Of a stretch of 64,000 bases of DNA, positions 6,708-32,990 are shown piece by piece. The stretch is taken from positions 96,001 to 160,000 of the forward strand of contig CAWJIE010000005.1 in assembly GCA_963842885.1 (NCBI GenBank), given 5' to 3'. The DNA is from an uncultured Nitrososphaerota archaeon (GTDB lineage: Archaea; Thermoproteota; Nitrososphaeria; Conexivisphaerales; DTJL01). The first letter of the stretch is position 1. Every line of letters begins with the position of its first letter. The notes under the pieces were generated by a model. It was not told where the DNA came from and did no database searches. It worked only from the letters and a program-made list of their open reading frames with translations. The translations under genes were made by a program, and so were the position numbers.

Positions 6708-7787
6708 TTACTCCGCAGATCGGAACAGGACGATCTCATGTAGGGCTGTTCCCTTTTCCTTGTTGGTAATCCCGTTGCGAGTCACGCCTATCTCGAAATC
6801 TGATTCGAGCCTGAAATATCCCGGTCGTAGACGCAACAAATGTTTTGCGATGAGCCTGAGCGGCATACTGAAGTTCTCAAGCATATCCTGACCCTCAAGG
6901 ACCTTTCTCACATCGAGGCCTATCTCAAGCTCGTTCGGGACCGAGATTGTGATCCTCCTAGGATAGCTGTGCTTGGCCTTCTGGTTATACTCAAAGTTCT
7001 CCTTTCCGAATTCGAACTCCCCTGTGCTGAGCATTACCTCTCTCCCGTCGGCCATCATCAAGACCTTGACCGCATGGTTACCCACCTTGTCATTGCACTG
7101 AATGAAAGCATAGGATACGGTGTAATGCTGCGAATAGATCCGTCCCCACATCCAATAGTCGATGATGCTCTGGAAGGGGAAATCTAACCAGTTGTGATCG
7201 TGATAGCCGACGCCCTTGACCTGCAAAACACGATCCCCATCGGCGATCGTTCCTTCGACCGAAGCTCTCGCAAAGGGGACCACCCAGGCAAAAGTGCCCA
7301 TCTTCCCGAACTGGGAAACACCAGTTCCAGGTTTCCAGCCGTTCACCTCGGCCTTAAAAATCAGATGGCAACCTAGGTCCTGTTCCTTTATATGGACCTC
7401 GTAGATAGGCAGTTCTCCGGGTGATTGTCTGGCCTTCAGATAGTTCTCTCCGATCTTGACGTCCGCCCCAGCACGGGAAGCGGTGAAGTCCGATTTGCTG
7501 CATGGCACGAACCTTTGGGTCTTCCTACCGTCTGGTCTGAGGAGGACGATCTCGATACCAGGCTTTCCTCCTGCGCCCGGGTTGGGGTTCGCTGCGTAGA
7601 AGAATATCACGATCGTGTGGCCAGTTTCCATATGCGCGTCAAAGTACCACCACTCATACATCCCTTTCTTGTGCATGTCGATATGGATGCCATCTTCTTC
7701 AGGCACGAGCGGTATTACGGTAGCATCACGTCTGCCAGGTCCGGTCCATCCTTCTTTGACCAAAGGTTCATTCATGTTATCAACCAC
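6708..7787 (-). CDS. Lipocalin-like CrtC/AttH/hydratase-fold protein
   Basis: YEWWYFDA at the N-terminus, GVGYHDHNW and YWMWGR are motifs of the CrtC/tocopherol cyclase-like beta-barrel fold. Confidence 0.7.
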   Translation of the reverse strand: MVDNMNEPLVKEGWTGPGRRDATVIPLVPEEDGIHIDMHKKGMYEWWYFDAHMETGHTIVIFFYAANPNPGAGGKPGIEIVLLRPDGRKTQRFVPCSKSDFTASRAGADVKIGENYLKARQSPGELPIYEVHIKEQDLGCHLIFKAEVNGWKPGTGVSQFGKMGTFAWVVPFARASVEGTIADGDRVLQVKGVGYHDHNWLDFPFQSIIDYWMWGRIYSQHYTVSYAFIQCNDKVGNHAVKVLMMADGREVMLSTGEFEFGKENFEYNQKAKHSYPRRITISVPNELEIGLDVRKVLEGQDMLENFSMPLRLIAKHLLRLRPGYFRLESDFEIGVTRNGITNKEKGTALHEIVLFRSAE

Positions 7788-9486
7788 CCTCAGGCTCGGC
7801 GTAGAAGAAGGGATCAGACGCGGTATTCGGATCCAATGCCTTCTTTATCTTGCTCATGTACTTAGGATAGTCATGGCAAGCTGGGCCGAAGCGCTTGTTC
7901 ATTTCACAACCGAACGCAGCGATCGGGATCCCCATAGCCTCCTCGATTGCCGCTTTGCATCCATCCTCGATGATCTCCCCGGAAGCTCTTACCGCCTCGG
8001 GATCTCCAGAGGCATACAGGAAGATACCTTCCATATATCCAAGATGAGAGTTTTCGAACGTGCCACCGCACCCCAGATCACCGCCATCGTCTAGGAAGGT
8101 CCCCTTTTCGATATACTTCTTCTTCGCCCGAGCGACCCATTCCGATTGCGTGATACCCATATCCCAAGTATCGAACGAACCTAACATCGTCGACATCCCC
8201 TGGGAAGGACGGAAGGTCGCCTGTGTGTTGACGGCGTTCCTAATCAACAGCCAGAATAACCGGGAGTCTAGCTGTAACTTCTGACGCTTTCCTAGGGGAA
8301 TGCTGTGGATCACGTCCTGCAGGCGAGGGAAGCGGCGTAGGATTGTGAGCGGGTCTTTGATGTGTTTCAATACAGGCTTCATGATACGGAACATTCGAGG
8401 CGTCATTTTGATGTTCATGGGCACTTTTACGCCGCCCGTCTCCCGCATTATCTGTTTCATCGCGGCCATTTTCCACTTGAATTCGCCATCCGAGTGGCCG
8501 ATCACCGCATTGACCAGCACATGGTGCATTGATTTGTCAAAGAAACCGCTCTCCATCGCAACCTTCAGCTCCTCATTGTTCTCGGTCATTCCGAGAGCGG
8601 ATAAGAACGATGGCGTACGGAAGCAAGCGAAGTCTATCTCAGCCTCTCCGAGCTTGTAGCCGGCATCTGCCATGGCCTTGGCGGAGGGGAAGGCATGCAC
8701 GTTCATCGTCATTCTTTCAGGTAATTTATCAAGAACGTAGACCGGGGATTTTCCTTGGACCTTCCACTGCGCGGGTCCATTCCACTTATAGAGTTTCACC
8801 GCGCACTTTGTGAACACACCGAGTCCTCCGAAGGTCCCTTGAAAACCACGCATGATGCCACGCAGCGAAGGCCCCGGACCGTCGGCTGTGAACCAACCTG
8901 TGCCGACACCGCCGCTGCCAAGGGTCAGGACCTCGCCGTTGGGCAATACCCATTCCACGCCGAGCAGATTACGACCGCTGTAGCTGGTCGCGGGTCCGCT
9001 CGAACCGTATCCCCATGCGGCCGCAGTGGACGCCAGAAGGGAATGATTGGAACCTGCGGAGACCGTGTGGACCGTCAGCCCCAACTTGAAGATCTCTGTC
9101 TGCAGGTCGATGGCGCGGACATAGGGTTCTACGATCGCGACTTGGTTTTTGGCGTCGATGTCAATGATTCTGTTCATACGCTTGAGGTCGAGGATTATCA
9201 CCCGGTCCCTTGAGGCAGCGCAGACTGCGTGGAATCCTGTCGAAAGCGGCTTGGTCATGAGGTGATTCTTGTTGCAGAACCGCATGATCTCTTGGATCTC
9301 CTGTGTGCTCTTGGGCAGCACAACGGCGACTGGACGAGGGAGCCACTTCGACCCATCCTTCACGACGGTCTCCGGATTCATGTAGAGCGAATACGTGTCC
9401 ATCATGCAGGGGGAGGTCGATACCCACTCTTGACCGACAATGTCCTGAAGTCCTTTGGTCTCTTCCTCGGTGATCAATGACAGCAC
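7780..9486 (-). CDS. FAD-binding oxidoreductase, VAO/PCMH (GlcD-like) family
   Basis: PVAVVLPKSTQEIQEIMRFCN, LDLKRMNRII, VEPYV, GVEWVLPNGE, C-terminal KIKKALDP. Confidence 0.85.
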   Translation of the reverse strand: MLSLITEEETKGLQDIVGQEWVSTSPCMMDTYSLYMNPETVVKDGSKWLPRPVAVVLPKSTQEIQEIMRFCNKNHLMTKPLSTGFHAVCAASRDRVIILDLKRMNRIIDIDAKNQVAIVEPYVRAIDLQTEIFKLGLTVHTVSAGSNHSLLASTAAAWGYGSSGPATSYSGRNLLGVEWVLPNGEVLTLGSGGVGTGWFTADGPGPSLRGIMRGFQGTFGGLGVFTKCAVKLYKWNGPAQWKVQGKSPVYVLDKLPERMTMNVHAFPSAKAMADAGYKLGEAEIDFACFRTPSFLSALGMTENNEELKVAMESGFFDKSMHHVLVNAVIGHSDGEFKWKMAAMKQIMRETGGVKVPMNIKMTPRMFRIMKPVLKHIKDPLTILRRFPRLQDVIHSIPLGKRQKLQLDSRLFWLLIRNAVNTQATFRPSQGMSTMLGSFDTWDMGITQSEWVARAKKKYIEKGTFLDDGGDLGCGGTFENSHLGYMEGIFLYASGDPEAVRASGEIIEDGCKAAIEEAMGIPIAAFGCEMNKRFGPACHDYPKYMSKIKKALDPNTASDPFFYAEPEGG

Positions 9487-9522
9487 CTTCCTCCTAGCTC
9501 CAATTTCCGTGGAGAGACCATA

Positions 9523-11001
9523 TCAAAGCCCCCATTTGCCCCGGTTCAATACCCTATGAGGATCGAATATCCCCTTCATTTTCTTCAACACCTCGTAGCT
9601 CAGCGGGTTTTGCCCGAACACCACGTCGCCGGCTGATCCGTATGGCCTGCTGAAAAAGGCCTCCTTCTGAGCCAGTTTCATCACCGCTTCCTTCTCAAGC
9701 CTGCGCATTAGCTCGACCTCGCTTGGCGTCCCGGGATCGAAGGGGCACATGAGCTCCACGTGGCAGGCATGGTTCTGAATGACAGGTTGTATGTAAACTC
9801 CGACAGACTCCTTCTCAATGGCATTTTTGCCGGCCAGATCAATGAAGACATCTACGAGTCCGGGCGCCCTATCAAGGGTCGTCAGGAAGAACAGGGAAAG
9901 GCAATGTCCTTTCAAACGATGACGCCAGTCAGTTTCGCCGCACGGACGTGTCGCCATATCCAGCAGAACCCTAGCTTGGATATTTCCCTGAGATGTCGTC
10001 ATGCTGAGCCTGTTCCCATTGGCGATGGATTCTATGTCCTTGCGCTGATACTCGACCCTTGACTTGGGCATCCTTTCAAATCCCGCGACGTTCACCAGGC
10101 AGACATAACTGGGAAGTGAGCTCCTTATTGCTTCGAATTGCCCTCCGCCCTGCGCGCTCACGAGCATGGCCGCCGCGGTGCGATCGAGAACAAAGAAATG
10201 CTCCCCTAACCATTGCCTTTGGACGTCGTAGATGAACGGGATCAACGCCAGGAGCGAATCCGCACCGAGAAGGAAAGGATGCTCGAGGGACGGTTTGAGC
10301 TCCGTGCGCATCGTGATCCATGTCACTATGCCCATAGTGCCCTGGGAACCTTGGATGACGCGGTGAAAATCCGTCTGAGATGGGCCCTGAGAGGATTTCT
10401 GGGCACCTCCCACAGCACGCTGCTGCTCAAGCGTCCCGGGACCGCCTGCCGCGCCGGTGCGGAACATCTCTCCGTTCCCGAAAATGAACTCCGTGCTCCC
10501 TACTGGGTCACTGATGTCCCACTGTCTATTTGGCCATATGGTGGGCTCTCGGTCCATCACCGATGCAACGACGCTCTTGCCGATGCGAGGCGAGAGCGGC
10601 ATCGGAACGGTCATTCCATACGGCTCAAGGGCCTTCAGCAATTCTCCGTAGGTAACGCCGGGCTCGATCAGGCAGACACGGTTTCGCCTGTTAATCCAAG
10701 GGATCTGCCTCCATTGGGACAGGTCTATCAAGATGTTCTCTTCCTTTGCCGCAAACCCGCCCTTGCCATGGACGCCCGTGGAGGAGGACACCGTCAGATC
10801 CAGACCGATTTCATTGGCAAGCCGCAACAATCCCTGTAATTCGTCCACTTTGGAAGGGCGGAGTATATAGGAAGGCTTCACCGCCCAATCTATGATAGGA
10901 TTCGATTGTTGAAAAGTGCCGATGTCGTCGGGATCACTGCTGACGGTACCCTCATGCAGAACCGAGCGCAGGCGTTCTCCAAGTTCAGGACCCGAGATCA
11001 C
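9523..11001 (-). CDS. FAD-binding oxidoreductase, VAO/PCMH family (second subunit)
   Basis: IEPGVTYGEL, GSQGTMGIVT, KMKGIFDPHRVLNRGK. Confidence 0.85.
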   Translation of the reverse strand: MISGPELGERLRSVLHEGTVSSDPDDIGTFQQSNPIIDWAVKPSYILRPSKVDELQGLLRLANEIGLDLTVSSSTGVHGKGGFAAKEENILIDLSQWRQIPWINRRNRVCLIEPGVTYGELLKALEPYGMTVPMPLSPRIGKSVVASVMDREPTIWPNRQWDISDPVGSTEFIFGNGEMFRTGAAGGPGTLEQQRAVGGAQKSSQGPSQTDFHRVIQGSQGTMGIVTWITMRTELKPSLEHPFLLGADSLLALIPFIYDVQRQWLGEHFFVLDRTAAAMLVSAQGGGQFEAIRSSLPSYVCLVNVAGFERMPKSRVEYQRKDIESIANGNRLSMTTSQGNIQARVLLDMATRPCGETDWRHRLKGHCLSLFFLTTLDRAPGLVDVFIDLAGKNAIEKESVGVYIQPVIQNHACHVELMCPFDPGTPSEVELMRRLEKEAVMKLAQKEAFFSRPYGSAGDVVFGQNPLSYEVLKKMKGIFDPHRVLNRGKWGL

Positions 11002-12305
11002 ATTCGCTCACCTCGGTCGATCTCTGCGGCCTCGTAAACAAGATCGACGATATCGACAACCGGAAGCAGTGGTTTCTCCAAGGATTGTTGGGACTCGGAC
11101 AGGTTCGCTCTGCAGTGATGACATGCTGTGACCAGACACTCAGCTCCCACATCCACCGCTTCTTCCAAACGGTCAAGAGCCGTTGAGCGCGCTAGATCCG
11201 GATATGCCAAGGGGACCCCGCCACCTCCTCCGCAACAATACGAGTATTCACGAATCCGATGCATCTCGATGAAATCGAGCCCTCTAATCGCACGTAGAAT
11301 CTGACGCGGTGGATCATAGACACCATTCACCCCTCGGTTGATCTCTTTGGGGGGTTCGGTGTAGGTCATGCAACCCCGGGTGACTTTTTGCTCCCCTTTC
11401 CATGTGAGGGGCGGTTCGCTCTGACGTCCAAGGTAACATGGATCGTGATAGGTCACCTTTCGCCTGATAGGATTGGGCAAGCGCAGACGGTTATCAGCTA
11501 TCAACTGCGCCAAGAACTCGGTAATATGCAGGACTTTGGCCTTGGGCGCCCTCGCATACTCAGGATACTTGGAACGGAAAGCTCCCAGGCACGACCCGGA
11601 CAGGACAACGACCGTCCCGATCTTCATATCGTCGAGCATATCCACCAGATGGTTTGCTGTGTTCGCAAAGACATCTCTGTGTCCTGTCCAGTAAGCTGGC
11701 AGCCCGCAGCTCGTTTCATTCTCTCGCAGGATGCCGAAATCCACCTCTGCTTGCTTCAGAAGGATGGCGCACTTTCGGGCTACTTCTGTGGCTCCTGGGT
11801 CGCATCGCATGCAACCCGTAAATAGGAGAATCGGCGCTTCTTGGTTCGGCAATATCTTCAATCCCAGGTCTTCTGCCCAACTCAGACCTTGATCCTCTGT
11901 CCTTCCCTCTGGATTTCCATATTCTTGAAGATTCTTTATCATGGACCGATGGGCAGGCAAAGCAAATCCTTCGTCCACAATGTGCTCTCTGAGCGCCATG
12001 TTCACTGCGTGGCGTTCCGCATCCATGATGAATTTGCAGGAAACATCACAGAGTCCGCATGCAGTGCAGGCGAACGTGATATCAGCAAGCGCTTGATCGA
12101 CCTGGATGCGGCCATTGACCAATGAGAGTGCCATGATGCTCTTGCCTGACCCTGAATATCCATGGAAATGGTACAGGTGGCTGGCTGGGCAACCATCAGC
12201 ATATTTCGGGTTCAGTACCGTTGGTAGTGGCACCATTTTGCACAAAGAGCATCTGATGCACTTCTGCATCTCCGGTTCCAGATCTTTGAGTCTAGACAAG
12301 GACAT
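10998..12305 (-). CDS. Fe-S oxidoreductase, HdrD/GlcF/GlpC-like (4Fe-4S clusters plus CCG domains)
   Basis: CIRCSLC..CP, CTACGLCDVSC, ETSCG, TYHDPCYLGR, YCCGGGGG, TACHHC. Confidence 0.9.
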   Translation of the reverse strand: MSLSRLKDLEPEMQKCIRCSLCKMVPLPTVLNPKYADGCPASHLYHFHGYSGSGKSIMALSLVNGRIQVDQALADITFACTACGLCDVSCKFIMDAERHAVNMALREHIVDEGFALPAHRSMIKNLQEYGNPEGRTEDQGLSWAEDLGLKILPNQEAPILLFTGCMRCDPGATEVARKCAILLKQAEVDFGILRENETSCGLPAYWTGHRDVFANTANHLVDMLDDMKIGTVVVLSGSCLGAFRSKYPEYARAPKAKVLHITEFLAQLIADNRLRLPNPIRRKVTYHDPCYLGRQSEPPLTWKGEQKVTRGCMTYTEPPKEINRGVNGVYDPPRQILRAIRGLDFIEMHRIREYSYCCGGGGGVPLAYPDLARSTALDRLEEAVDVGAECLVTACHHCRANLSESQQSLEKPLLPVVDIVDLVYEAAEIDRGERM

Positions 12306-12589
12306 GCCGTTGCACGTTCCTCTGCTAATGAGCAACTGGCGCCTAAAAGGATATTGGACTCCGCCAGAACGATATTCTTTGGCCGCATTGTGATCGTTTT
12401 AAAGCCTTCCTAAGCCGCTTCACTCTATTCATCATTTGCACCGTTTTGCAAAATAGCGGAAATCTAGAAAGAGGAAAAAGTATGTTACATTTTTTCAATG
12501 CTTTCCGACACGGCGGTTATTGGGTGAGCGGTGGCGACCCGATTTCCCCCGGGGCAGTCAAGAGTCCTTCAGGCCGATCTGTTCTCGGG

Positions 12590-12872
12590 CGAGACTTCAG
12601 GTGCAGATTGCCTGCGCCATCGGTGTGGCGGAGCCCATCTCCGTCTTCGTGACGACCTTCGGCACCGGGAGAATCCCCGACGATAAGATAATGGAGCTGG
12701 TCAAGAAGGACTTCGACCTGCGCCCCGGCATGATCATCAAGCGCTTGGACCTTCTGAGGCCCATCTACAGGAAGACGGCCTGCTCGGGCACTTCGGGAGG
12801 AACGAGCCCGAGTTCACCTGGGAGAGGACAGACGTGGCCGATCATCTGCGGCAGCTGGCTGGACTGAAGTAG
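12590..12872 (+). pseudogene. metK: C-terminal fragment of a bacterial-type S-adenosylmethionine synthetase
   Basis: [47 protein letters not shown], then after a frameshift [15 protein letters not shown]; the N-terminal two thirds are missing. Confidence 0.85.
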
Positions 12873-12933
12873 CACACGGATTCAGCGTAGCTCAGTTCAC
12901 TCCGGGCTGGCCATTAGCGCTGTCGGCGAGCCT

Positions 12934-13929
12934 TCAGAGGTAACCATTATCGCGGTACCATTCTAAGGTCTCGCTTAGTCCATCTCTCAGCCCGAAAGAT
13001 GGCCGATACCCCAGCTCCCTCGTCGCCTTCGCCGAGGAGAAGGCCCGGTCGCAAGTCACCGAGTCCACCGTGCCCGTGCGCCACATGAAGCTCTCCCTCC
13101 CCGCTACAGCGTTGAAGGCCTCGACGGGGGCCATCATCGCCTTCGCCAAGGCCTTGGGAAGGTGCCTGACGGGAGGCTTTCGTCCGCAGAGCTCGGCCAT
13201 TATGGAGTACAGGTCCGTGTACGTCCAAGCATGGTCATCGGTTATGATGTACGTCTGGCCATTGGCCGCCTCGGGGTTTTCTAGGGCTAGGGCGAAGGCG
13301 CTGACCACGTCTCGAACGTGGACGAACTGCACCAGGTTCCTCCCGCTGCCTACGATGAATTTCGTGGCCAAAGAGCCCTTGGCGAAGGATGTGATGAACC
13401 AGTAGGCGACGTCGTCGACGTTCTTGGGGCCGTATACGCCAGACGGACGGATGATGGTCCAGTCGATGCCGTCCGCCGTTGACTCCCTGACCGCCTTCTC
13501 CGCCGCCACCTTGGACCGTCCGTATTCGTAGGAGGGCCTCAGAGGCGTATCCTCGTCGGCCGGGGGCGATTCCACGGGGCCGATGGCCTCCGTGCTGCTG
13601 CAATAGATGAACCTCCTGACGCCGTTGGCGACGCAGGCCCGGAGGAGGGAACGCGTCCCTTCCACGTTCACCTCGTCGTAGAGCTCCCTTTTCCCGAAGA
13701 AGGTGTAGTAGGCGGCAAGGTGGATAACCGCCTCCATACCTTCGGTCGCCACAATGAGGCTCTTTGCATCCGTAAGGTCAGCGATCCTAATCTGCGCGCC
13801 GGCCACGCCATCCGTTGTCGCCTTGCGTGCCATACCGGTTACCTCATGCCCCCGGCGGACCAACTCTTCGACAATGTACCCTCCAATGAAGCCGGTCGCG
13901 CCCGTCACCAATACCTTCGTCGGGCTCAC
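12934..13929 (-). CDS. NAD-dependent epimerase/dehydratase (3beta-HSD/HpnA-like extended SDR)
   Basis: VLVTGATGFIG, VIHLAA, SSTEAIG, YGRSK, RPSGVYGP. Confidence 0.9.
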   Translation of the reverse strand: MSPTKVLVTGATGFIGGYIVEELVRRGHEVTGMARKATTDGVAGAQIRIADLTDAKSLIVATEGMEAVIHLAAYYTFFGKRELYDEVNVEGTRSLLRACVANGVRRFIYCSSTEAIGPVESPPADEDTPLRPSYEYGRSKVAAEKAVRESTADGIDWTIIRPSGVYGPKNVDDVAYWFITSFAKGSLATKFIVGSGRNLVQFVHVRDVVSAFALALENPEAANGQTYIITDDHAWTYTDLYSIMAELCGRKPPVRHLPKALAKAMMAPVEAFNAVAGRESFMWRTGTVDSVTCDRAFSSAKATRELGYRPSFGLRDGLSETLEWYRDNGYL

Positions 13930-14155
13930 CCCAGGAGGACGCGGCCTTCTCGGCTGTGGACGGCGTAAGTAAGGGACAGAGCTAGGTTCACACCATCAAA
14001 CGGCTCGGCGGAGCTCCTCATGTACATGTCCTCGACCGGCGTGACCCGGTAGACGCCTGCTACCCCGCCTTCAAGCATTTCGTCGGGATCGAAGCTCGGC
14101 TGCACGATGCATTGATGCACAACTTGAGTATTAAGCGTGATGGACAGGAGGCCCA

Positions 14156-14171
14156 TTCGCAGGTCCAAGCC
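14156..14171 (+). repeat. 16-bp motif TTCGCAGGTCCAAGCC, copy 1
   Basis: Identical to 14377-14392 and 15178-15193; intergenic. Confidence 0.85.
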
Positions 14172-14255
14172 GACGTCCCTGACCTCCAACGCTTCGGTAC
14201 CAAGACACGTAAGAACGAAGAGTATCAAAGATATGAAGGAAGGAGAGTTGGGAGG

Positions 14256-14345
14256 ATGTGGTACACGAAGACAAGACTGCTCATAGTCATAATCATAATA
14301 GTGGTGGTCACCGCGGCCATTGCCCTATTGAAAAGGTCCGTCTGA
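14256..14345 (+). CDS. Small single-TM peptide (29 aa)
   Basis: MWYTKTRLLIVIIIIVVVTAAIALLKRSV with purine-rich SD-like sequence upstream; lies between motif copies 1 and 2. Confidence 0.5.
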   Translation: MWYTKTRLLIVIIIIVVVTAAIALLKRSV

Positions 14346-14376
14346 AGAGATAGCACCAGATTCAGACATCGATGCT

Positions 14377-14392
14377 TCGCAGGTCCAAGCCG
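14377..14392 (+). repeat. 16-bp motif TTCGCAGGTCCAAGCC, copy 2
   Basis: Exact copy. Confidence 0.85.
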
Positions 14393-14522
14393 AGGCGTCA
14401 CCCGTCAGCGGAGGAATCCCGTCGTTCTTGAACTCGACTGGCCCAATACCTCAATCGATATTAGGAAGGCTGACAACGATTCGGTCAGCAGGTAGATCTC
14501 CTTGGTTGACAGGCCAGCATCC

Positions 14523-15101
14523 ATGAAGTCTAGATACGGCTTGGGCGCGGCGGGAGCACTCTTGCTCTTGGCCGGGACCGTTAACGTCATCTTCAACATG
14601 GTCTCTGAAGGGACATATCCTGGTTACAACCTCGGCACCAACGCTCTGAGCGACATGGGCGCAATCGGCTCGCCAACGTTTCTCCTCTGGAATGGTCAGT
14701 TGCTGGTCACTGGGATCCTCTCATTCATAGGGGTCGTAATATTCCTGCGAAGCTCGGCTCTCCCAATTCCTAACATCAGAACTGCTTGGGTCTTGTATGT
14801 CTTGCCGCCGTTGGGATCAATCATCGTTTCTCTCTTTCCTGAGAATTCGGTTTTGGCCATTCACGCAGTAGGTGCCTTTATGGTCTTTATTTTTGGAGGT
14901 CTTGGGTCTATCTACGCATATAGGTTCACGAAGTCCCCGTTCAGGTATCTATCGGTACTCTTGGGAGCGGTGTCTCTGCTGGCCATATCCCTCTTCGGCA
15001 TTCCGTCGGTCGTCGGCTTTGGCGTCGCAGAGCGCCTGGTCGTGTACTCGTTCAACATCTGGACCATTTGTTTTGCAGGATACCTGATGTCAAGAGAATG
15101 A
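14523..15101 (+). CDS. DUF998 family membrane protein
   Basis: YPGYNLGTNALSDMGA, LFPEN..IHAVGA, GVAERLVVY. Confidence 0.8.
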   Translation: MKSRYGLGAAGALLLLAGTVNVIFNMVSEGTYPGYNLGTNALSDMGAIGSPTFLLWNGQLLVTGILSFIGVVIFLRSSALPIPNIRTAWVLYVLPPLGSIIVSLFPENSVLAIHAVGAFMVFIFGGLGSIYAYRFTKSPFRYLSVLLGAVSLLAISLFGIPSVVGFGVAERLVVYSFNIWTICFAGYLMSRE

Positions 15102-15177
15102 ACAGCTCCACCAGAGGACGATAGGTCTGAATGCGAATTGGGCTACATCGAAATCTTGCCACGAAATCAGCCCATTT

Positions 15178-15193
15178 TTCGCAGGTCCAAGCC
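15178..15193 (+). repeat. 16-bp motif TTCGCAGGTCCAAGCC, copy 3
   Basis: Exact copy. Confidence 0.85.
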
Positions 15194-15250
15194 CACGCCT
15201 TGGGATACCTATTGAAATACTGGTCAGCCTTACAATACTGGGGCGAGTTC

Positions 15251-15670
15251 ATGAGTAGAGCCGGTGACTACAACGCGCAGAACATTGCGGAGTTCCGCAG
15301 GAATCACGGAAAAGTCGGAGGCTACTTCGAGGGAGCTCCGTTGCTGCTGCTCCACACCGTCGGGAGACGCAGCGGCAAACCTCGCACCAACCCGATGATG
15401 TACCTCAAAGACGGGGAGCGTTACGTGGTGTTCGCGTCCAAAGGTGGTGCGGATACCCATCCGGACTGGTACTACAACCTCATGGCCCACGCTGACGTCC
15501 AGATCGAGGTCGGCGACGAGACGATTGACGTGCATGCTGAAGAGATCACCGGCCTTGAACACGACAGAATCTACAGGCGCCAAGCCACCCTCTATCCCCA
15601 GTTCGCCGACTACCAACGCAAGACCAAGAGAATCATCCCAGTCGTCGCTCTCACCAAGAAGAAGAAATAG
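15251..15670 (+). CDS. Deazaflavin (F420)-dependent nitroreductase family protein (Ddn-like)
   Basis: IAEFRRNHGKVGG, LLLHTVGRRSGKPRTNP, FASKGGADTHPDWYYNL, YQRKTKRIIPVV. Confidence 0.9.
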   Translation: MSRAGDYNAQNIAEFRRNHGKVGGYFEGAPLLLLHTVGRRSGKPRTNPMMYLKDGERYVVFASKGGADTHPDWYYNLMAHADVQIEVGDETIDVHAEEITGLEHDRIYRRQATLYPQFADYQRKTKRIIPVVALTKKKK

Positions 15671-15817
15671 AGAGGAAGTTTGTTGAAGTCCCGCCTTGAT
15701 TCAATTAACTTATTGACTTCAATAACATAAAGATGATTAACCTATTGAGAGTCCTCTGTTCGGGCCTAAGCGCTGCACGTCGACCTAATTCATACCTCCG
15801 GATACGAATAGTTCAAT

Positions 15818-15967
15818 TGGTAGCCCGGGAAGGATTCGAACCCTCGTCACCAGGGGTCTCCTCCCAACAGCGCCAAGGAGTCTTGTTCTAGCCCACGGCT
15901 GTCAGGATCCAGAGCCTGGTATCCTTGGCCGCTAGACTCGGCGGCGCACCTGCGCCTCGACCGGGCT
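15818..15967 (-). tRNA. tRNA-Gln(CUG) with two BHB introns (21 nt at 10/11, 15937-15957; 53 nt at 37/38, 15856-15908), CCA encoded
   Basis: Spliced sequence AGCCCGGTCG|TCTAGCGGCCAAGGATACCAGGCTCTGG|CCCTGGTGACGAGGGTTCGAATCCTTCCCGGGCTACCA; A1-U72 pair; each intron has a 4-bp central helix flanked by 3-nt bulges. Confidence 0.92.
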
Positions 15968-16035
15968 TCAGGGCTACCGTATGAACAGGCTTTTTGTAGG
16001 TATAAGTCCTTTTCTGAACGGAAGGTCACCCAAGT

Positions 16036-17166
16036 CTACTGAGACAACTTCATGTATTCGGACACTGCCTTGCCGGTGTCGAACCCTGGAAGTTCAGCCG
16101 TGACCCCTTCGCCGAAGGCGGCCAAGGCGAGGAGGAGTTGGTCCTTTGTGACGTTCCCCATGTGACCCACTCGAATCATGTCGTCCTTGTGCGTGTCAAC
16201 CCCCCTTGCGACCAAGATGTTGTGCCTGGCGAGTATGGACTGGTGTATCTTCGCCGCGTCCTTGACTTTGATCGTCGTTACGGTGGGGCTGGGGTCCCTG
16301 GCCCAGAGCTGGACGCCGCCTTTGACGAGAGCCTCCCTGAAGGCGGAGGACAGGATTGTGTGCCTCTTCCAACGGCTTTCTAGCCCCTCCTCCTTGACCA
16401 TCTCCAATGCCACACGCAGTGCTCGCAGGATCGGCACGGTGGGGGTGGTGACATAGATTTGAGGGTCCTTCATCACCTCTAACCAGTTCTGCAGGTTGAA
16501 ATAGTACGATGGGATCGGTGTCTTCCTCTTCTGGACGAGGTCCACCGCCCGCGTGGACAGGGCCATCAGCATCGCGCCGGGTGGCGCGGCCAGGGCCTTC
16601 TGAGATCCGGCGAAGGCGACGTCCAAGTCCCAGTCGTCGAACCTGAGCTCGGCGCCTCCCAGACCGCAGACGGCGTCGACCAGGGACAGGGCCCCGTGGC
16701 GGCGCGCGACCGAAGCCAGGTCCTTTACGTTGTTGATCACGCCCATGCTCGTCTCGATGTGGGTGATCAGGACAGCCTTGTACGCGTCCTTCGAAAGCAT
16801 TTCGTCGAGGACCTTTGGGTCGGCAGCTTGGCCCTCGGGGGGACTGTAGACGGTGGTCTCCGCTCCGTATATCCTCGAGACGTTCGTGTAGCGCTTGCCA
16901 AAATAACCCAGCTCGATGGAAAGTACCCTGTCACCCTTCTCAAACAGGCTGGCTGCAGAAGATTCTATCCCGAAGGTCCCAGAGCCGGAGAATACGATGA
17001 CGTCCCCCTTGGCCTGAAAGACGTACCTCGTCAGGTCTAGGATCTGCAGGAATTCGTTCTCGAACTCCTTCGATGTGTGCCCCACCATGGGGAGGGACAT
17101 CGCCTGAAGGACGCGAGGATGGAGGTTCGTCGGGCCCGGAATCATGACAAGAGTGGGATCTGCCAT
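16036..17166 (-). CDS. Class V PLP aminotransferase (serine-pyruvate/alanine-glyoxylate type)
   Basis: LVMIPGPT, THIETSMG, VDAV, GSQKALAAPPG, IRVGHMG. Confidence 0.9.
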   Translation of the reverse strand: MADPTLVMIPGPTNLHPRVLQAMSLPMVGHTSKEFENEFLQILDLTRYVFQAKGDVIVFSGSGTFGIESSAASLFEKGDRVLSIELGYFGKRYTNVSRIYGAETTVYSPPEGQAADPKVLDEMLSKDAYKAVLITHIETSMGVINNVKDLASVARRHGALSLVDAVCGLGGAELRFDDWDLDVAFAGSQKALAAPPGAMLMALSTRAVDLVQKRKTPIPSYYFNLQNWLEVMKDPQIYVTTPTVPILRALRVALEMVKEEGLESRWKRHTILSSAFREALVKGGVQLWARDPSPTVTTIKVKDAAKIHQSILARHNILVARGVDTHKDDMIRVGHMGNVTKDQLLLALAAFGEGVTAELPGFDTGKAVSEYMKLSQ

Positions 17167-17207
17167 GTCAGTTGGCACTCAGCCAAGGGTCAGGCTGAGC
17201 CACGGCT

Positions 17208-18173
17208 TTAAGTATTCTCGAGCAGTCGTGGGCGCGCCAAGTCGACCATCCTTTCGACGACCTCCTTGATCCGGACCCCTGGGCCCCCTCCCATGGCGAA
17301 GTTCGGCTCGCCTCCGCCCTTCCCTCCCTGCTCCTCGAGCACGTCGCTGAGCAGCTTGCCGCAATCAAGGTTCACGCCCGGGCTCCTTGCTATCAGCACG
17401 AACGGAGTCCCCTTTTCACTGTACCCCAGGACGAAGAGATTCCTTCCAGATGTGATCGCCCGGCCCACTTCGAAGAGCAGCACCTTGCCCGCCACCGGCC
17501 CAAGATCATAGGCGTAGATCTCCGTCCCTCCGATGGAGCTCGAAGGGTGCAGACTCCGGAACACCCGCGAAGTCAGCTCGCCCACGACCCCCTTCAAGCT
17601 CGAAAGCTCAGCTTCGGCCCGTGCCGATGCCTCCGCGATGAAGTTGTGCCTGCAGTGGAGATGTCGCGCCGCCTCGACCTCGCTGAGGATCGTGCTCCCG
17701 ACCAGCCGCATCGCCTCGCGGCCAGTGACGAACGAGAACTCATAGGAAGAGCCTGCAAGGCTGCGGAAGTCCTCAACGACGAAGAGGGAGGCTGTCGCGG
17801 TGCTTCTCGCGTGGCTGTGGGCGCATGTGGCGGCGTCATATTCGCCAATCTGCACCACCCTGACCTTTCCCTCGAGCCGCTCCTCCCTGGTCCTCAGCCT
17901 GGGAAACGTCCTTCGGGCCTCCTCCACTGATGAGAAGGAAAGCTCCTTGACCGGGAGGTCTGCGGCGATCATCCTGTTCGCCGCCTCCATCGAGTCGACC
18001 AGGGCCTTCCAGTCTAGGCGTGACGCCTTCAGCTTCACCTTGCCGCGGAGCCCCTCCTGTTCCACGACATGGACGGTGAGGTCCACTCCTAGGTCCTGGA
18101 GGCTTCTTATGAACAGGTGTTCAGCTGTGTGTGCAGCCGCCTCCGCTTCGGCATTCGTTCCGGTTTCCATCAC
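17208..18173 (-). CDS. AlaX-like tRNA editing protein with DHHA1 domain
   Basis: HTAEHL and CAHSH zinc-editing motifs; C-terminal GGKGGG..FAMGG. Confidence 0.75.
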   Translation of the reverse strand: MMETGTNAEAEAAAHTAEHLFIRSLQDLGVDLTVHVVEQEGLRGKVKLKASRLDWKALVDSMEAANRMIAADLPVKELSFSSVEEARRTFPRLRTREERLEGKVRVVQIGEYDAATCAHSHARSTATASLFVVEDFRSLAGSSYEFSFVTGREAMRLVGSTILSEVEAARHLHCRHNFIAEASARAEAELSSLKGVVGELTSRVFRSLHPSSSIGGTEIYAYDLGPVAGKVLLFEVGRAITSGRNLFVLGYSEKGTPFVLIARSPGVNLDCGKLLSDVLEEQGGKGGGEPNFAMGGGPGVRIKEVVERMVDLARPRLLENT

Positions 18174-18231
18174 GGTGATGGGGGAACGGGGGGTAATATG
18201 AGCTACGCTCGCCAGTCGCAGAGATGTATAC

Positions 18232-20118
18232 TCAGGAAAACTGGGACGGTTTCACGTAGTCCCCGAACTTGGAGCGTGTTTCACGGAGCCTGGCGCGTTG
18301 CATTCCCAGGACATCGTAGAGCCTCTGTGGCACGTGCTCCATTCCCCTATAGGTTTTCTCCACCCTGTCCAGCTTGGCCAGGCGCTCGGGAATCCTGAGA
18401 GTGAACTGCTCGTCGTAGGCCTCCTGGGTGTAGGGCCTCCCTAAGACCTCGGAGAAGAGCCTCTTCAGGTCGGAGTATATCGGTATCCTGCCAGTGGGAG
18501 TCTCTATGGCCTGGACATCTCCGTGGGTCCGGAGCTCCATCCACTTGAACCAGACGCGCTTGTCCGTCTTGTCGTTGAGGAACCTCCCCTCCTTGTTGCG
18601 AAGAAAGTAATTCACACCGAAGATCTTCGGCTGGTGCTCTAGTTCCTCTCCGAAACGCAAGTTGTCCTCAACATAACGACCGACCGGGATGGAGAGGAAG
18701 TCGAGGTTCGACATTGGATTGAACTCCCTGACCCCCTCCTTGCCCAGCGTGGCCGCCGTCGTCTCAGACTCTAGGCAGGCGCCGAACGTGACGATCCCGT
18801 GCTCCCAGCCGATGGACTCTTCGACAGGCACGCATGTGTCTGAATCTCTTCCGCCGTACACGATGGCGCCCACCTCCACACCCGCAGGGTCTTCGATGAC
18901 CGGGTCCAGGTTGCTGAACAGGTCGAGCGAGACCGTGAAGCGAGCGTTCAGGTGAGAAACGGGCACATCCTTGCCTTTCTCGTCCTTCTTCCCCTGCCAC
19001 CACTTCCCGCTGTGATTGATCCCAGCAGCAGGCATTGCGACGTCCGCTCCGTCCCAGAAGACCCCCCCGTCGCTGGTCACGAGCACATTGGAGAAGATGA
19101 TCTCGCCGGGGCTGTGGAGGACCTTCCACTGAATGGAGTCGTCCCTGGAGTTGATTCCCTGGATGATACCGAAGACGCCCTTCTCCACGTTCACCGAGCG
19201 AACGCTTCCGTTCACTTTGCGCAAGTAGGCTATGTCGTCGCCAACTATCCTCTCCCCTTCGAGCATGGCGGTGGAGGTCTTCCCGCACATCGACGGAAAC
19301 GCCCCCGTGAAGTACGTCCTCCTCCCGCCGGGGCCGTTGACCCCCATAACCAGCATGTGCTCCGTGAGCCAGCCTTCTCTGGATGCCCTGACGATGGCGA
19401 GCCTCATGGCGAGCTTCTTCAGCCCGATGGAGTTCCCGCCGTACTGGGTGTTGACGCTGTAGACCGTCTCCCCGTCCAGGTCGATGTAGATCCTTCTCAT
19501 GCCCAGGTTCTTTGACGTCCTCCGCTCGTCCAGCTCCCCCTCAGAATGGACGAACTTGAACGGCCTGGCGCTGGCTCCCTGGCGAATGAACTCCTCGTAC
19601 CCCTGGCGGTAAAGTATGTCTTCGCTGTGGGCGACGTAGCTGGAGTCGGTTATCTGGACGCAGGGGATGGAGAAAATGGAGCCCACGGGACCGAGACAAT
19701 AGAACGACACGAACATGCGGCGGCCCGCCATGATGCCCTTCAAAAGAGACCTCACTTCCTCAAGCCTCTCCTGCCTTTCGCCCGTCCTGATGCCAGGTCC
19801 CAGATTCACTCCGGCCGGGAGAAGGATCTGGGTGTGCTCCCTGTCCCTTCCCTGATCATAGTAGTTCTCAAAGTGGGCGGTGTGGCCTTCGGTCGAAAGG
19901 CGGGACTCTTCGCCGTCGGCGACCGCGGCCTCTCGGATGAAAATGAAGTCCTTGGGAGTGCTGGCGGAGACGTAGACGCTCAATGGATCGCAGAGCTCGA
20001 CGTATTCCGCAACGAACCTGAGCACGTCATCGCTTCGAATCGCTTCAAGGCGACCAAAGTCCTTCGGTGACAATCGGCCCTTCAGAAAGACCGACGCGCT
20101 GGTCTCAGTAGCTGTCAT
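18232..20118 (-). CDS. pckG: Phosphoenolpyruvate carboxykinase (GTP)
   Basis: YGGNSIGLKK, WLTEHM, GAFPSMCGKTS, VGDDIAY, YGGRD, FNPMSNLDF. Confidence 0.95.
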   Translation of the reverse strand: MTATETSASVFLKGRLSPKDFGRLEAIRSDDVLRFVAEYVELCDPLSVYVSASTPKDFIFIREAAVADGEESRLSTEGHTAHFENYYDQGRDREHTQILLPAGVNLGPGIRTGERQERLEEVRSLLKGIMAGRRMFVSFYCLGPVGSIFSIPCVQITDSSYVAHSEDILYRQGYEEFIRQGASARPFKFVHSEGELDERRTSKNLGMRRIYIDLDGETVYSVNTQYGGNSIGLKKLAMRLAIVRASREGWLTEHMLVMGVNGPGGRRTYFTGAFPSMCGKTSTAMLEGERIVGDDIAYLRKVNGSVRSVNVEKGVFGIIQGINSRDDSIQWKVLHSPGEIIFSNVLVTSDGGVFWDGADVAMPAAGINHSGKWWQGKKDEKGKDVPVSHLNARFTVSLDLFSNLDPVIEDPAGVEVGAIVYGGRDSDTCVPVEESIGWEHGIVTFGACLESETTAATLGKEGVREFNPMSNLDFLSIPVGRYVEDNLRFGEELEHQPKIFGVNYFLRNKEGRFLNDKTDKRVWFKWMELRTHGDVQAIETPTGRIPIYSDLKRLFSEVLGRPYTQEAYDEQFTLRIPERLAKLDRVEKTYRGMEHVPQRLYDVLGMQRARLRETRSKFGDYVKPSQFS

Positions 20119-20235
20119 CTGGTTCCCTGAAACTGCACAAACGGTCTGCGAACTATTTTAGTCTTTGTTCGGCAGGAAGTTGCAAGAAAAAGGGAACGAT
20201 CCCGACCCGTCGTCCCTCAGATAGACGTCGACATC

Positions 20236-21528
20236 CTACCTGAAGGTGGAGGTGCCCCACTTCTTCAGGGCCTCTTTCAGTTCCTTGCTCTTGGCCGCAT
20301 ACTCCTGTAAGGGCGTCCCCTGCTGGTAGGCGTCAATGGCATCCCGGAGCGCCTTGGCTCCGGCCCTCCCGCCAGCTGGATGACCCCAGATGCCTCCCCC
20401 GAGCTGCACCACGATGTCGGTGCCAAGGATGTCGAACAGCTGCGGAAGGAGGCCGACGTGAAGGCCACCGGAGCAGACGGGGAAGACAGGCTTCATTCCG
20501 TGCCAATCGGTACCCAGAAGGTGACCACGGCTGTCCGTGCTGGGCGAGGTGATCTTGTCTTCCAGCGTCCGCACCTCGGCCCTCGACGCTTCGAGCTTCC
20601 CCACGACAGTGCCGATGTGAAGCTGGTCGACGCCTATGAGCCGGCATGTCTCGGCGACGACCGCCATGCTCATCCCATGGTTGGGGCTTCTGGTGAAGGC
20701 GGCATGGAAGGCTCTATGGGCATGTATCGCCAGCCCGAGATCACCGGCCGCCTCCCTGAGCGTCTGCAAGGCAGCCCAGCCAGCGGTAATTACATCGATC
20801 ATGATGTACTCCCCGCCCAAGTCCTTCACCAGCTTCGCACGCCGCACCATCTCGTTAGTCTCGGCCGTGATGTTTATCAGGTAGCTCTTGCGCTCGCCCG
20901 TCTCCTTCTCGGCCATGTCCCTGTACCGGAAGGTCTCCCTGGCCCTAGCCTCGAACGGGTTGAAGCCCTGGCTGGTGAGGTTCTCGTCGTCCTTCAGGAG
21001 GTCCAGGCCGCCCAGCCATGCTTCGTAGCCGTAGAGGGCGTGCTCCTTGTATGTGAGGCCTAGCTTAGGCTTAGGAACGGAGGCGGTGAGTGGGCGCTTC
21101 GGGACCTTCATGAAACTCCTTATCCCCTGCCTGCCGAAGCCCGGCCCGCTAAAAGAGCGCACCAACTCCTCGGGCCAGAAGACGTCCACCAGCCTCAGAC
21201 TCCTGAGGGCCTTCATGCCGAAGACGTTCCCCGCTATGCTGCTCATTACCTGGGGCATGTTCCCAGGCTCAAAGAGCTCCAGGGGGTAGGACACGAAGAC
21301 ATATTCGCCATCTAGTCTGTAGGCGTGGGCCATGATGTCCCTCACTTCTTTCGTGAGGGTGGTGAGGGTGGTCCATGTTCCCACGCTGCTCTCAGAGGCG
21401 ACGCGCCCGGCCGCCTCCTCCATGGAGAAGCCCCTTGATGGCCTGACCTTGAATGCCGCCACCAGCTCGCCCTCCGAAGGCTCGTGCTTGAAGTCGAGAA
21501 AATCGGAATACCATTCGATCTTCTTCAT
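20236..21528 (-). CDS. rbcL: Form III RuBisCO
   Basis: ESSVGTWT, PKPKLG, GLDLLKDDENL, HAHRAFH, SGGLH, GGGIWGHP; catalytic residues intact. Confidence 0.95.
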   Translation of the reverse strand: MKKIEWYSDFLDFKHEPSEGELVAAFKVRPSRGFSMEEAAGRVASESSVGTWTTLTTLTKEVRDIMAHAYRLDGEYVFVSYPLELFEPGNMPQVMSSIAGNVFGMKALRSLRLVDVFWPEELVRSFSGPGFGRQGIRSFMKVPKRPLTASVPKPKLGLTYKEHALYGYEAWLGGLDLLKDDENLTSQGFNPFEARARETFRYRDMAEKETGERKSYLINITAETNEMVRRAKLVKDLGGEYIMIDVITAGWAALQTLREAAGDLGLAIHAHRAFHAAFTRSPNHGMSMAVVAETCRLIGVDQLHIGTVVGKLEASRAEVRTLEDKITSPSTDSRGHLLGTDWHGMKPVFPVCSGGLHVGLLPQLFDILGTDIVVQLGGGIWGHPAGGRAGAKALRDAIDAYQQGTPLQEYAAKSKELKEALKKWGTSTFR

Positions 21529-21736
21529 GTCTGCTTTTCCGAGATGTTACAGTGCCTCATACCCATATATGTCTGCGGCCAAAAGCGTCGGGGGAAATGC
21601 AGCGCCCTCCTTGGGGACGGCCGAGAAGAGGGCGGCTGAAGTTGCGCTATCCGTCGCCAAGTCTGCTGATTGCGAGGCTGGCCGTCCCGAATTAGCCAAG
21701 ACCATTTTTTATATTCGTGGAGTCCGCACATCACCC

Positions 21737-23065
21737 ATGAGCCAGCCTAGGAGGGCAGTGATCCTTGGAGCTGCTGGGCGAGACTTCCACAATTTCAACG
21801 TCTTCTTCCGAGAGAATCCCGCCTATGAAGTGGCGGCCTTCACGGCCACGCAGATACCTTACATATCGAACCGGACGTACCCGCGCTCCCTGGCTGGGCC
21901 CAGGTACCCTTCGGGCATCCCGATAGTCCCCGAGTCCGAGCTGTCTTCTCTCATCGAAAAGCAGGGGGTCGACGACGTCTTCTTCTCCTACAGCGACGTC
22001 ACCCACGAGCAGGTCATGCATCTGGCCTCCATGGTCTTGGCTGGGGGAGCCTCCTTTCACCTTCTCGGGCCCAAGGACACCATGATTCCCTCACGTAGAC
22101 CTGTCGTGGCAGTCGTAGGGAGCAGGACGGGAGTGGGCAAGTCCACCATTTCCAGGCACGTCTTCAGGACGCTCTCTGACCTGGGCTGGAAGCCGGTGGT
22201 GGTTAGACATCCGATGCCCTATGGGAACTTCGACCGGGCTGTCGAGAGATATGCCACTGTCGACGACGTCGTGAAGTCGGGCATAACGGTGGAGGAGATG
22301 GAGGAGTACGAGCAGCACGTCGAGCAGGGAGGGGTCATTTACTCTGGAATCGACTACGGAGAGATCCTGAAGCAGGCAGAGAAGGAGGGGGACTTGGTGC
22401 TGTGGGACGGAGGCAACAACGACATGTCGTTCTACAAACCCAACCTGACGATAACGGTGCTGGACCCCACGAGGCCGGGACAGGAGGCGAAGTACCACCC
22501 TGGAGAGGCGAACGTCAGGATGGCTGACATCATAGTGGTCAACAAGGTCAACGTGGCGGCGAAGCAGGAAACGGAAAGGACCATGGCCGCGGCCAGGGAG
22601 CTCAACCCGAAGGCCGAAATCGCCCTCACCGAGTCGGTCGAAACAATCGACAAGCCGGAGCTGGTCAAGGGCAAGGATGTGCTGGTCGTGGAGGACGGGC
22701 CGTCGGTGACCCATGGGGGGCTTTCAGAAGCCGTGGGCGCCAGGGCGGCGCGGCTCTACGGCGCCAGGCTGGTAGACCCGAGGAGCTACGCCGTTGGCTC
22801 GATAAAGGAGGCATATTCGAAGTTCAAGCAGATGGGGCTCGTGATGCCGTCATTGGGGTACAGCAAGGAGCAGCTCAAGGACCTCGAAGATTCCATCAAT
22901 GGAGTCCCGTGCGACGCCGTGCTCCTGGGCACGCCGGCCAACCTGGCGCTCGTGCTCCATATTGTGAAACCCGTGGCGAGAGTCAAGTTCGCGGCCAAAG
23001 ACGCTTCCACCCCGTCGCTTTCGGAGCTCCTCAAGCTGCACGCGGGCGGCTTCAGGCGCGAGTGA
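21737..23065 (+). CDS. COG2403 P-loop enzyme (cyclic 2,3-diphosphoglycerate synthetase-like / arginine synthetase ArcE-like)
   Basis: GAAGRDFHNFN, RTGVGKS, RHPMPYG, EEMEEYE, WDGGNND, VEDGPSVTHG. Confidence 0.8.
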   Translation: MSQPRRAVILGAAGRDFHNFNVFFRENPAYEVAAFTATQIPYISNRTYPRSLAGPRYPSGIPIVPESELSSLIEKQGVDDVFFSYSDVTHEQVMHLASMVLAGGASFHLLGPKDTMIPSRRPVVAVVGSRTGVGKSTISRHVFRTLSDLGWKPVVVRHPMPYGNFDRAVERYATVDDVVKSGITVEEMEEYEQHVEQGGVIYSGIDYGEILKQAEKEGDLVLWDGGNNDMSFYKPNLTITVLDPTRPGQEAKYHPGEANVRMADIIVVNKVNVAAKQETERTMAAARELNPKAEIALTESVETIDKPELVKGKDVLVVEDGPSVTHGGLSEAVGARAARLYGARLVDPRSYAVGSIKEAYSKFKQMGLVMPSLGYSKEQLKDLEDSINGVPCDAVLLGTPANLALVLHIVKPVARVKFAAKDASTPSLSELLKLHAGGFRRE

Positions 23066-32829: not shown

Positions 32830-32990
32830 TCGGCGTTAAAAGACTTGCGGGTTCTGGGAAGTTATCGGTTGACTCTTCCCTTCGAGACATCGACTCTGAG
32901 GATTACAGGCATCGTCTGGTTCCCCTTCATCGCTTCAACTGCCTCGCCTTTGGAATGGGCGAACCTCACCCACCCTTTGTGCGAGATGTT
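32830..32990 (-). ncRNA. Predicted omegaRNA (reRNA) scaffold plus guide
   Basis: Stems GGGTGGGTGA/TCGCCCATTC, CGAGGCA/TGTCTCG and GGGAAG/CTTCCC overlap the tnpB 3' end; the guide would be the flank CGCAAGTCTTTTAACGCCGA. Confidence 0.6.

Follow-up and report, generated by a model that had tools for sequence, protein, structure and literature searches.

This report concerns a 16-bp motif, TTCGCAGGTCCAAGCC, that occurs in three exact copies in a stretch of 64,000 nucleotides (hereafter, the window) on contig C5 of a 2.03-Mb, 11-contig Conexivisphaerales genome. On balance we favour the reading that the motif is the core of a shared attachment or crossover joint of mobile gene-sized modules, which lie in variable islands of one Conexivisphaerales genus. 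As for the window itself, its sequence is best read as a small array of three site-bounded modules, whose position beside a tRNA gene would be incidental.

The site and its taxonomic range

An earlier analysis made from the letters of the window (the sequence-only reading) had placed the three copies at 14156, 14377 and 15178, all of them between genes and in one orientation. Our search of the 64,000 nucleotides reproduced the first and the last of these starts, the intergenic positions and the shared orientation, which is that of the + strand, but the remaining copy starts at 14376. Each copy has a + strand open reading frame (ORF) at its 3' side: these are a putative 29-aa ORF without Pfam family, a DUF998 gene and an F420H2-dependent quinone reductase gene, the three that the sequence-only reading had taken for co-oriented genes, one per copy. 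No further copy was found in the window, even at up to 3 mismatches (the mean in shuffled sequences was 0.81).

The same reading had proposed to follow the motif through the genome and its relatives, and over the whole genome its copies clearly exceed chance. The source genome holds 41 exact copies and a total of 66 at up to 2 mismatches, while a reversed control pattern gave 0 forward matches and 1 reverse match. At up to 1 mismatch the source genome has 58 copies, and three sister species in its genus have 24, 60 and 44. A fourth sister species has 1 copy at this threshold and, instead, about 7 copies of a variant, TTCGCAGCCCCAAGCC, three of which form a small array. The 36 genomes of other genera, families and classes gave 0 copies each at up to 1 mismatch, save one single one-mismatch match. 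In the public genome collection, the multi-copy matches were confined to records of metagenome-assembled genomes titled Conexivisphaerales or Nitrososphaerota archaeon, and the many single 16-mer matches in bacteria were what chance predicts for that much DNA. The site is a dispersed repeat restricted to one Conexivisphaerales genus. A viral or plasmid source was considered and rejected: all the 21 viral-contig matches to the 16-mer lacked the extended site and look like chance.

Regarding the anatomy of the site, the 16-mer is the core of a non-palindromic, directional sequence of about 23 bp, TTCGCAGGTCCAAGCC-YACGYCC, and the conserved block as a whole reads TT-CGCAGGTCCAAGCC-YACGYCC. Our alignment comprised 268 unique sites, taken from four genomes and from 80 metagenome contigs. 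Conservation per position was 96-100% in the 16-mer, 92-93% in the TT and 68-88% over YACG, two flanks that had played no part in the motif search, whereas the surrounding DNA is only 72-83% identical (median) across those species pairs. In this alignment the 5' edge of the block is sharp, with a G-poor C/T tract before it, and the 3' side decays gradually. Only the source genome and its closest relative commonly have a further box upstream, (tc)aGCCCA with 0-3 T after it. Coding through the site on the opposite strand was rejected, because the variable T run shifts the reading frame between copies.

The site consensus, read by eye, has no dyad symmetry. Neither did we find an attC-type fold, as the sites folded no better than shuffled sequences or random windows: the mean z of 57 sites with 60-nt flanks was -0.17 for the top strand and -0.20 for the bottom strand, compared with -0.23 for 60 random genomic windows. 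The site matched no RNA family known to Rfam, and the same is true of two repeats that accompany it, modules A and C, described below.

Site-bounded units in variable islands

The copies of the site are grouped in islands where their orientation is nearly uniform. In the four genomes, 115 of the 119 neighbours at most 5 kb apart are co-oriented and 4 are opposite; in the 80 metagenome contigs, some of which duplicate the genome sequences, neighbouring copies are co-oriented in 117 cases out of 117. The units between sites (n = 120) have a median spacing of around 1 kb and range from 167 to 7816 bp. As regards the 78 units of single-gene size, the best-scoring ORF lies on the site's strand in 37 units, on the other strand in 32 and is unclear in 9, and the distance from the site to the start codon spans 16-656 bp. 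Without exception, the sites fall between ORFs. The genes near them code for ABC-2 transporters, major facilitator superfamily (MFS) transporters, beta-propeller surface proteins, PAS histidine kinases, AbiE/nucleotidyltransferase pairs and helix-turn-helix (HTH) proteins, together with many family-less ORFs.

Since genes occur on both strands and at such different distances, a promoter or operator at a fixed position is excluded. The sequence-only reading had taken a fixed distance to TSS or TATA as the sign of a regulatory site rather than of cassettes, and distances to the gene start that vary this much leave its cassettes standing. We therefore find it hardly credible that a regulon uses the motif as a shared operator or promoter element. 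This would explain why all three copies of the window precede co-oriented ORFs, but not the 37, 32 and 9 units just mentioned nor their range of distances; moreover, the promoter-like region of the DUF998 gene lies downstream of the site and is conserved separately.

We also found no support for the idea that replication sets the orientation of the site. There are at least 7 orientation flips on four contigs, none of them at the Orc1/Cdc6 gene on contig C3, and the origins were not mapped. The genome has two Orc1/Cdc6 genes (C4:344684-344950 and C3:234220-234501); the one on C4 lies 3-8 kb from an array where the orientation of the motif switches (C4:335-341 kb).

The units behave as modules when species are compared. 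Near the same tRNA and aminotransferase genes that stand beside the window array, one sister species has no site within 16 kb and in another one four sites stand in reverse orientation among other genes, while a third has an array of at least 9 sites, 9 kb past the epimerase gene. Genes of the window are found again in other places: the DUF998 gene has an 81% identical copy on another contig of a sister species, behind module B and a decayed site, and the quinone reductase gene has an 83% identical copy in a sister species, also on another contig and inside a different array. Three pairs of orthologous units (88-92% identical) and a pair of paralogous ones (78%) are alike from one site to the next, and the DNA beyond is unrelated. 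Among the 120 units, 29 pairs share at least 100 bp and 4 pairs match over their full length, and the neighbours of the latter differ in all 5 cases that could be assessed. Furthermore, the array DNA of two sister species matches the source genome over 31% and 16% of bases, compared with 54% and 61% for DNA of the same contigs outside the arrays. The identity of the shared units is within the range of ordinary orthologous DNA between the species (median 83%, high-scoring segment pairs of at least 500 bp), therefore what is shown is rearrangement and not necessarily recent transfer between species.

A comparison of segments gave 251 matched pairs, with neighbours conserved in 222 comparisons and switched in 67, counts that are not independent because the same loci are duplicated in the genome and metagenome sets; in 15 of the switched cases the shared segment was at least 97% identical. 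Three cases were checked by alignment. In the first, one metagenome contig and a sister genome contain a 334-bp unit that has its own site; this unit is absent from a contig whose flanks are 99% identical. In the second, two units (C2, 104.6-106.4 kb) stand in swapped order in a contig 97-98% identical. In the third, a contig is 100% identical to the source genome over 334 bp and then diverges; we return to the joints of all three below. No target-site duplication was seen at the joints inspected. One sample has a contig that spans the whole window array.

As far as contigs can show, the gain, loss and reordering of units between strains is real. This agrees with what the sequence-only reading had expected, namely that the motif marks the joints of gene units which vary and shuffle among relatives: the order is not invariant, as the different neighbours, the presence or absence of the 334-bp unit and the swapped units make clear.

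Possible routes of exchange

The favoured reading can be put as a Campbell-type cycle. A module with one copy of the site would recombine with a resident copy by a single crossover and would then lie between two co-oriented copies; crossover of two such copies could free the module again as a circle, and repeated rounds could build, trim and reorder the arrays. Each module would bring its own promoter, so that genes could lie on either strand. Single-crossover insertion of circles at a resident copy would give co-orientation regardless of the gene strand, and the cycle as a whole would give arrays, unit-wise homology, different neighbours and strain polymorphisms. We infer both the circular intermediate and the direction of events, and likewise that the site stays conserved because units need a matching copy: one whose copy has decayed could no longer move.

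Three further repeats are found in the source genome and its closest relative. Module A has around 50 bp, is AT-rich and TATA-like, contains two ATTAACCTATTG direct repeats and has 44 matches; module B has around 35 bp; module C is a hairpin of around 45 bp with 53 matches, and this hairpin belongs to module C and not to the motif. They occur alone and as composites with the motif (M), namely A-M, B-M, C-M, A-C-M and M-C. The other two site-rich species gave few or no matches to modules A and C, thus these are companions and not parts of the site. A long form of module A follows the last site of several arrays other than that of the window, and a short form is fused to the motif. One copy of module A has a promoter-like placement, around 31 nt upstream of the 5' end of tRNA-Ser(GCU) (C4:214559-214583).

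Module C is also the target of an IS110-family element (PF01548 + PF02371), which has three copies, one of them frameshifted (C3:189200-190640, C3:1370-2700 and C7:18960-20300). Every copy sits at the same point of the module C loop, ttccagca^gc, which makes it an archaeal IS110 element that targets a repeat. As the agent behind the arrays it was rejected, since its target is the hairpin of module C instead of the motif, and it was not found in two site-rich species.

Another reading takes the site for the conserved end of a small non-autonomous transposable element, similar to miniature inverted-repeat transposable elements (MITEs), repetitive extragenic palindromic (REP) elements or IS200/IS605, which would insert between genes in a set orientation by means of a transposase encoded elsewhere. 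We regard this as very unlikely. The sharp 5' edge of the conserved block, the recurrence of A-M, B-M and C-M, and a genome with one Y1 transposase, six TnpB genes and the IS110-family element targeting module C would all suit such an element. However, the part common to all four species is only around 23 bp long and has neither inverted repeat nor hairpin, no target-site duplication was seen, and the IS110 element was not found in two site-rich species. Besides, the joint travel of whole inter-site units would be left unexplained. A link of the site to the TnpB, Y1 and serine recombinase loci gained no support either, the site likeness there being not above that of background windows.

We searched for an enzyme that could act on the site. 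The source genome has four tyrosine recombinase (PF00589) matches, all of them at least 11 kb from any array, one serine recombinase, the Y1 transposase, which lies beside a TnpB gene, and the six TnpB genes. One lead comes from a sister species: contig 59 of L211 carries between two sites (12472-22090) a 9.6-kb unit with a tyrosine integrase gene at 13175-14362 (PF00589, E 2.1e-14), around 700 bp from the site. This unit also codes for a HEPN protein, and its other neighbours are mostly without Pfam family. From its gene content and flanks it looks like an autonomous integrative element with the motif as its attachment site. It is the one clear case of an integrase-bearing element flanked by direct copies of the site, with none in the source genome, and its integrase has no relative in the viral contigs. 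Sister species have two more integrase genes or fragments no farther than a few kb from sites. In the family, 7 of 9 genomes have tyrosine recombinases (E<=0.001), and PF00589 is without any match in the site-poor species of the genus; over these nine genomes, the correlation between the presence of PF00589 and site richness is weak.

Apart from that, the N- and C-terminal fragments of a zinc-ribbon tyrosine integrase are found on two contigs of the source genome, at C9:16774-17214, beside tRNA-Glu (C9:16624-16700), and at C3:20563-20871. By analogy, this is the pattern that would be expected of an SSV-type integrase disrupted by its own integration. Both contigs carry motif arrays (C9:190 and C3:24-8696).

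Several observations weigh against a joint of the kind that we favour. No recombinase gene adjoins any array in the source genome, the 20 protein families found most often within 6 kb of sites across the whole data set include no recombinase, and the one profiled tyrosine integrase family is present in site-less genera and was not found in one site-bearing species. The crossover point is not fixed either. In the first of the aligned cases the joint is at AAGCC, 5 bp long and immediately 5' of the extended site; in the second, one breakpoint is inside module A and the other one at the site; in the third, the divergence begins inside module A, the contig going on as A-M where the source genome has the long A form; and in one unit of the aligned pairs the break falls within the 16-mer or beyond it. 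A circular form was not observed, the apparent read joints being cross-mapping from other copies of the repeat, with sides of 20-26 letters. Finally, metagenome contigs may be chimeric at repeats, and the switched neighbours counted above include duplicated loci.

Thus, breakpoints are confined neither to one nucleotide position nor to one repeat family, and this variation (AAGCC, 16-mer, module A) fits recombination at any shared repeat better than one enzyme with one cut. The driver may be a dedicated site-specific recombinase acting in trans, or else host homologous or short-homology recombination on conserved repeats: the variable breakpoints favour host recombination, whereas the strict 23-bp conservation across species and the integrase-bearing unit favour a dedicated recombinase. 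The full form of the latter would be a dedicated cassette-exchange system other than integrons, where a candidate recombinase acting in trans on the 23-bp non-palindromic double-stranded site inserts, excises and reorders self-expressed modules at dozens of loci. We consider such a system possible but doubtful.

The same observations lend themselves to the main rival explanation, which we think unlikely. The site could be mainly a functional intergenic element (acting in chromatin, as an insulator, in the binding of a regulatory protein or as a transcript-end signal) between the transcription units of accessory islands, and the shuffling could be a passive by-product of homologous recombination between dispersed repeats of any kind. 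Breakpoints inside module A, a varying crossover point and the lack of a linked recombinase are all consistent with this. So are the invariable position between ORFs and the conservation of the site amid more divergent surroundings, which suggests selection on its sequence. Nevertheless, the site shows no relation to the direction of the genes (37 against 32) or to their distance, and its near-total co-orientation regardless of the gene strand is unexpected for a regulatory site. Moreover, it is missing from the other genera of the family, therefore it does not belong to their gene expression in general.

The gene-cassette systems known so far are essentially integrons, whose defining marks are attC hairpins and IntI. 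The known systems nearest in outcome to the arrays described here are integron arrays and CALINs (clusters of attC sites without integrase), among them archaeal ones defined by canonical attC (PMC9668308). As in integrons and CALINs, short co-oriented sites less than 4 kb apart bound mobile gene-sized units, mostly of single genes and often of unknown function, the content is highly variable between relatives, and most arrays have no integrase nearby. The site, however, is a conserved 23-bp sequence without dyad, while attC has a variable sequence and a conserved hairpin. On our reading of the site it has no GTTRRRY core, and there is no IntI, which is not excluding by itself because CALINs are also without IntI. 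The genes lie on either strand instead of being co-oriented behind a common promoter as integron cassettes are, and the breakpoints are not at one fixed position. Hence, of the four integron features that we tested, clustered co-oriented sites were found, and the attC fold, an adjoining IntI-type recombinase and co-oriented cassettes were not. The sequence-only reading had spoken of integron-like accretion without attC. The outcome of such accretion is indeed what we see, but its mechanism lacks support, given that no integrase adjoins the arrays of the source genome, the genes have no orientation bias and some breakpoints fall in module A.

Nearer in mechanism are the tandem arrays of integrated elements that re-use one att site of a tyrosine integrase, mentioned for elements of archaea and bacteria (PMC6563490). 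Like them, the arrays have direct repeats of one att-like sequence flanking successive inserts, and one 9.6-kb unit has an integrase by the site. They differ in scale and in the lack of integrases: the median unit has around 1 kb and no integrase, the sites are around 60 over many loci instead of one attB, and the site is not part of a tRNA or of a conserved gene.

Two other kinds of repeat bear comparison. The Neisserial dRS3/NIME (Neisseria intergenic mosaic element) and the enterobacterial BIME (bacterial interspersed mosaic element)/REP mosaics are inverted or palindromic repeats around short non-coding units. There too, short repeats combine with few intergenic modules, as with A, B and C here, one of which is targeted by IS110, and repeats act as breakpoints; but our repeat is direct, non-palindromic and bounds whole genes. 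Of the hallmarks of REP, BIME or MITE, the palindrome or terminal inverted repeats and the target duplication were not found: there is no consensus dyad, no fold and no duplication at the inspected joints. The pdif sites of Acinetobacter plasmids are 28-bp dyad XerC/XerD sites with two recombinase-binding arms and alternating orientation. They resemble the present case in that discrete gene modules are bounded by copies of a short site in different contexts, whereas our site, judged from the consensus, is without dyad and its copies are co-oriented.

The repeat is undescribed in the literature that we found on Conexivisphaerales, archaeal integrons, thaumarchaeal integrated elements and archaeal cassette or hypervariable islands (supplements not covered), and a term search of a preprint on Conexivisphaerales gave no mention of mobile elements, integrons or cassettes. 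What makes it worth attention is that a simple sequence-defined joint, with around 60 sites per genome, coincides with the most variable DNA of a little-studied lineage, that of non-ammonia-oxidising Nitrososphaerota from peat and soil, and that the cargo of the modules includes transporters, surface proteins, sensors and toxin-antitoxin-like genes. If an enzyme stands behind the site, the result would be a site-specific recombination system of a new type, whose short target looks programmable, and a dedicated system, if true, would be an archaeal second invention of the gene-cassette principle. If there is no enzyme, it would be a clear natural case in which short conserved repeats divide the accessory genome of an archaeon into modules open to exchange. 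In both cases the 23-mer offers a practical means of retrieving cassettes from metagenomes and of tracking gene flux at strain level.

The probable neighbouring tRNA gene and the features of the window

The array of the window ends near a putative tRNA gene (Table 1). ARAGORN, with or without introns, found no tRNA in the window, nor did Rfam at its gathering score; a sub-threshold Rfam tRNA match covers 15829-15938 (-) with 22.1 bits against a cut-off of 29 (E 0.16). Compared by eye, however, 15818-15967 (-) shares the acceptor stem and the whole T-arm and 3' end with the genome's tRNA-Gln(UUG), and probably represents a tRNA-Gln(CUG) gene whose two introns would lie near position 8/9 and in the anticodon loop. 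The tRNA that the sequence-only reading had seen beside the array is thus weakly supported, since it has these shared parts but was missed by both programs. Within an intron of this probable gene, 11 positions of a 13-nt stretch agree with the reverse complement of the motif, a likeness that we take as chance.

That reading had gone further and regarded the copies as scars of an attachment site derived from tRNA-Gln, left by serial capture of cassettes at the tRNA. We give this almost no credence. In its favour, the window array ends around 70 bp from the 3' end of the probable tRNA-Gln gene, and elsewhere in the source genome integrases overlap tRNA genes. Yet only 3 of the 66 copies adjoin this tRNA, the other 63 being elsewhere, and beside the same tRNA the site is reversed in one sister species and missing within 16 kb in another. 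The likeness to the anticodon arm of tRNA-Gln did not hold up: the alignment of the extended motif to tRNA-Gln(UUG) scores 7, and so does that of its reverse complement, with two gaps, which is noise, and the likeness to the resident tRNA is also at noise level.

Table 1. Features of the array and its flanks (positions in the window)
Feature	Position	Strand	Remarks
Junction site, copy 1	14156..14178	+	Exact 16-mer plus GACGTCC; right flank fits YACGYCC except for the first base
Junction site, copy 2	14376..14391	+	Exact 16-mer; right flank GAGGCGT departs from consensus
Junction site, copy 3	15178..15200	+	Exact 16-mer plus CACGCCT; cagcccattt directly 5'
Unit 1 (204 bp)	14172..14375	+	Putative 29-aa hydrophobic ORF, 14256-14345; no Pfam family
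Unit 2	14392..15177	+	DUF998 membrane protein gene, 14523-15101, with own upstream region; PF06197, E 1.8e-13
Unit 3	15194..15699	+	F420H2-dependent quinone reductase gene, 15251-15670; PF04075, E 8.7e-41
Module A, long form	15700..15749	+	Closes the array; AT-rich TATA-like repeat between two ATTAAC(C/T)TATTG direct repeats; core 15720-15736 is an exact match
Probable tRNA-Gln(CUG) gene, two introns	15818..15967	-	3' end is towards the array; conserved next to the aminotransferase gene in three sister species
NAD-dependent epimerase/dehydratase gene (left flank)	12934..13929	-	PF01370, E 1.4e-49; conserved in sister species, local gene order differs
Class-V aminotransferase gene (right flank)	16036..17178	-	PF00266, E 1.1e-24; syntenic with the tRNA in three sister species

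The copy of module A that closes the array points into the antisense of the tRNA-Gln gene. On the other side, a block of three conserved genes (568, 492 and 445 aa; window 7780-13929) has the epimerase gene at one end, whereas two sister species (L176 and L177) have it at the other, and both of these have an extra gene of 355-375 aa there. Therefore, the left flank of the window array has been rearranged. Farther away, one of the six TnpB genes of the genome (Cas12f1-like_TNB, PF07282) lies in the window at around 32985-33206 (-), corresponding to C5:128985-129206, and shows no relation to the motif.

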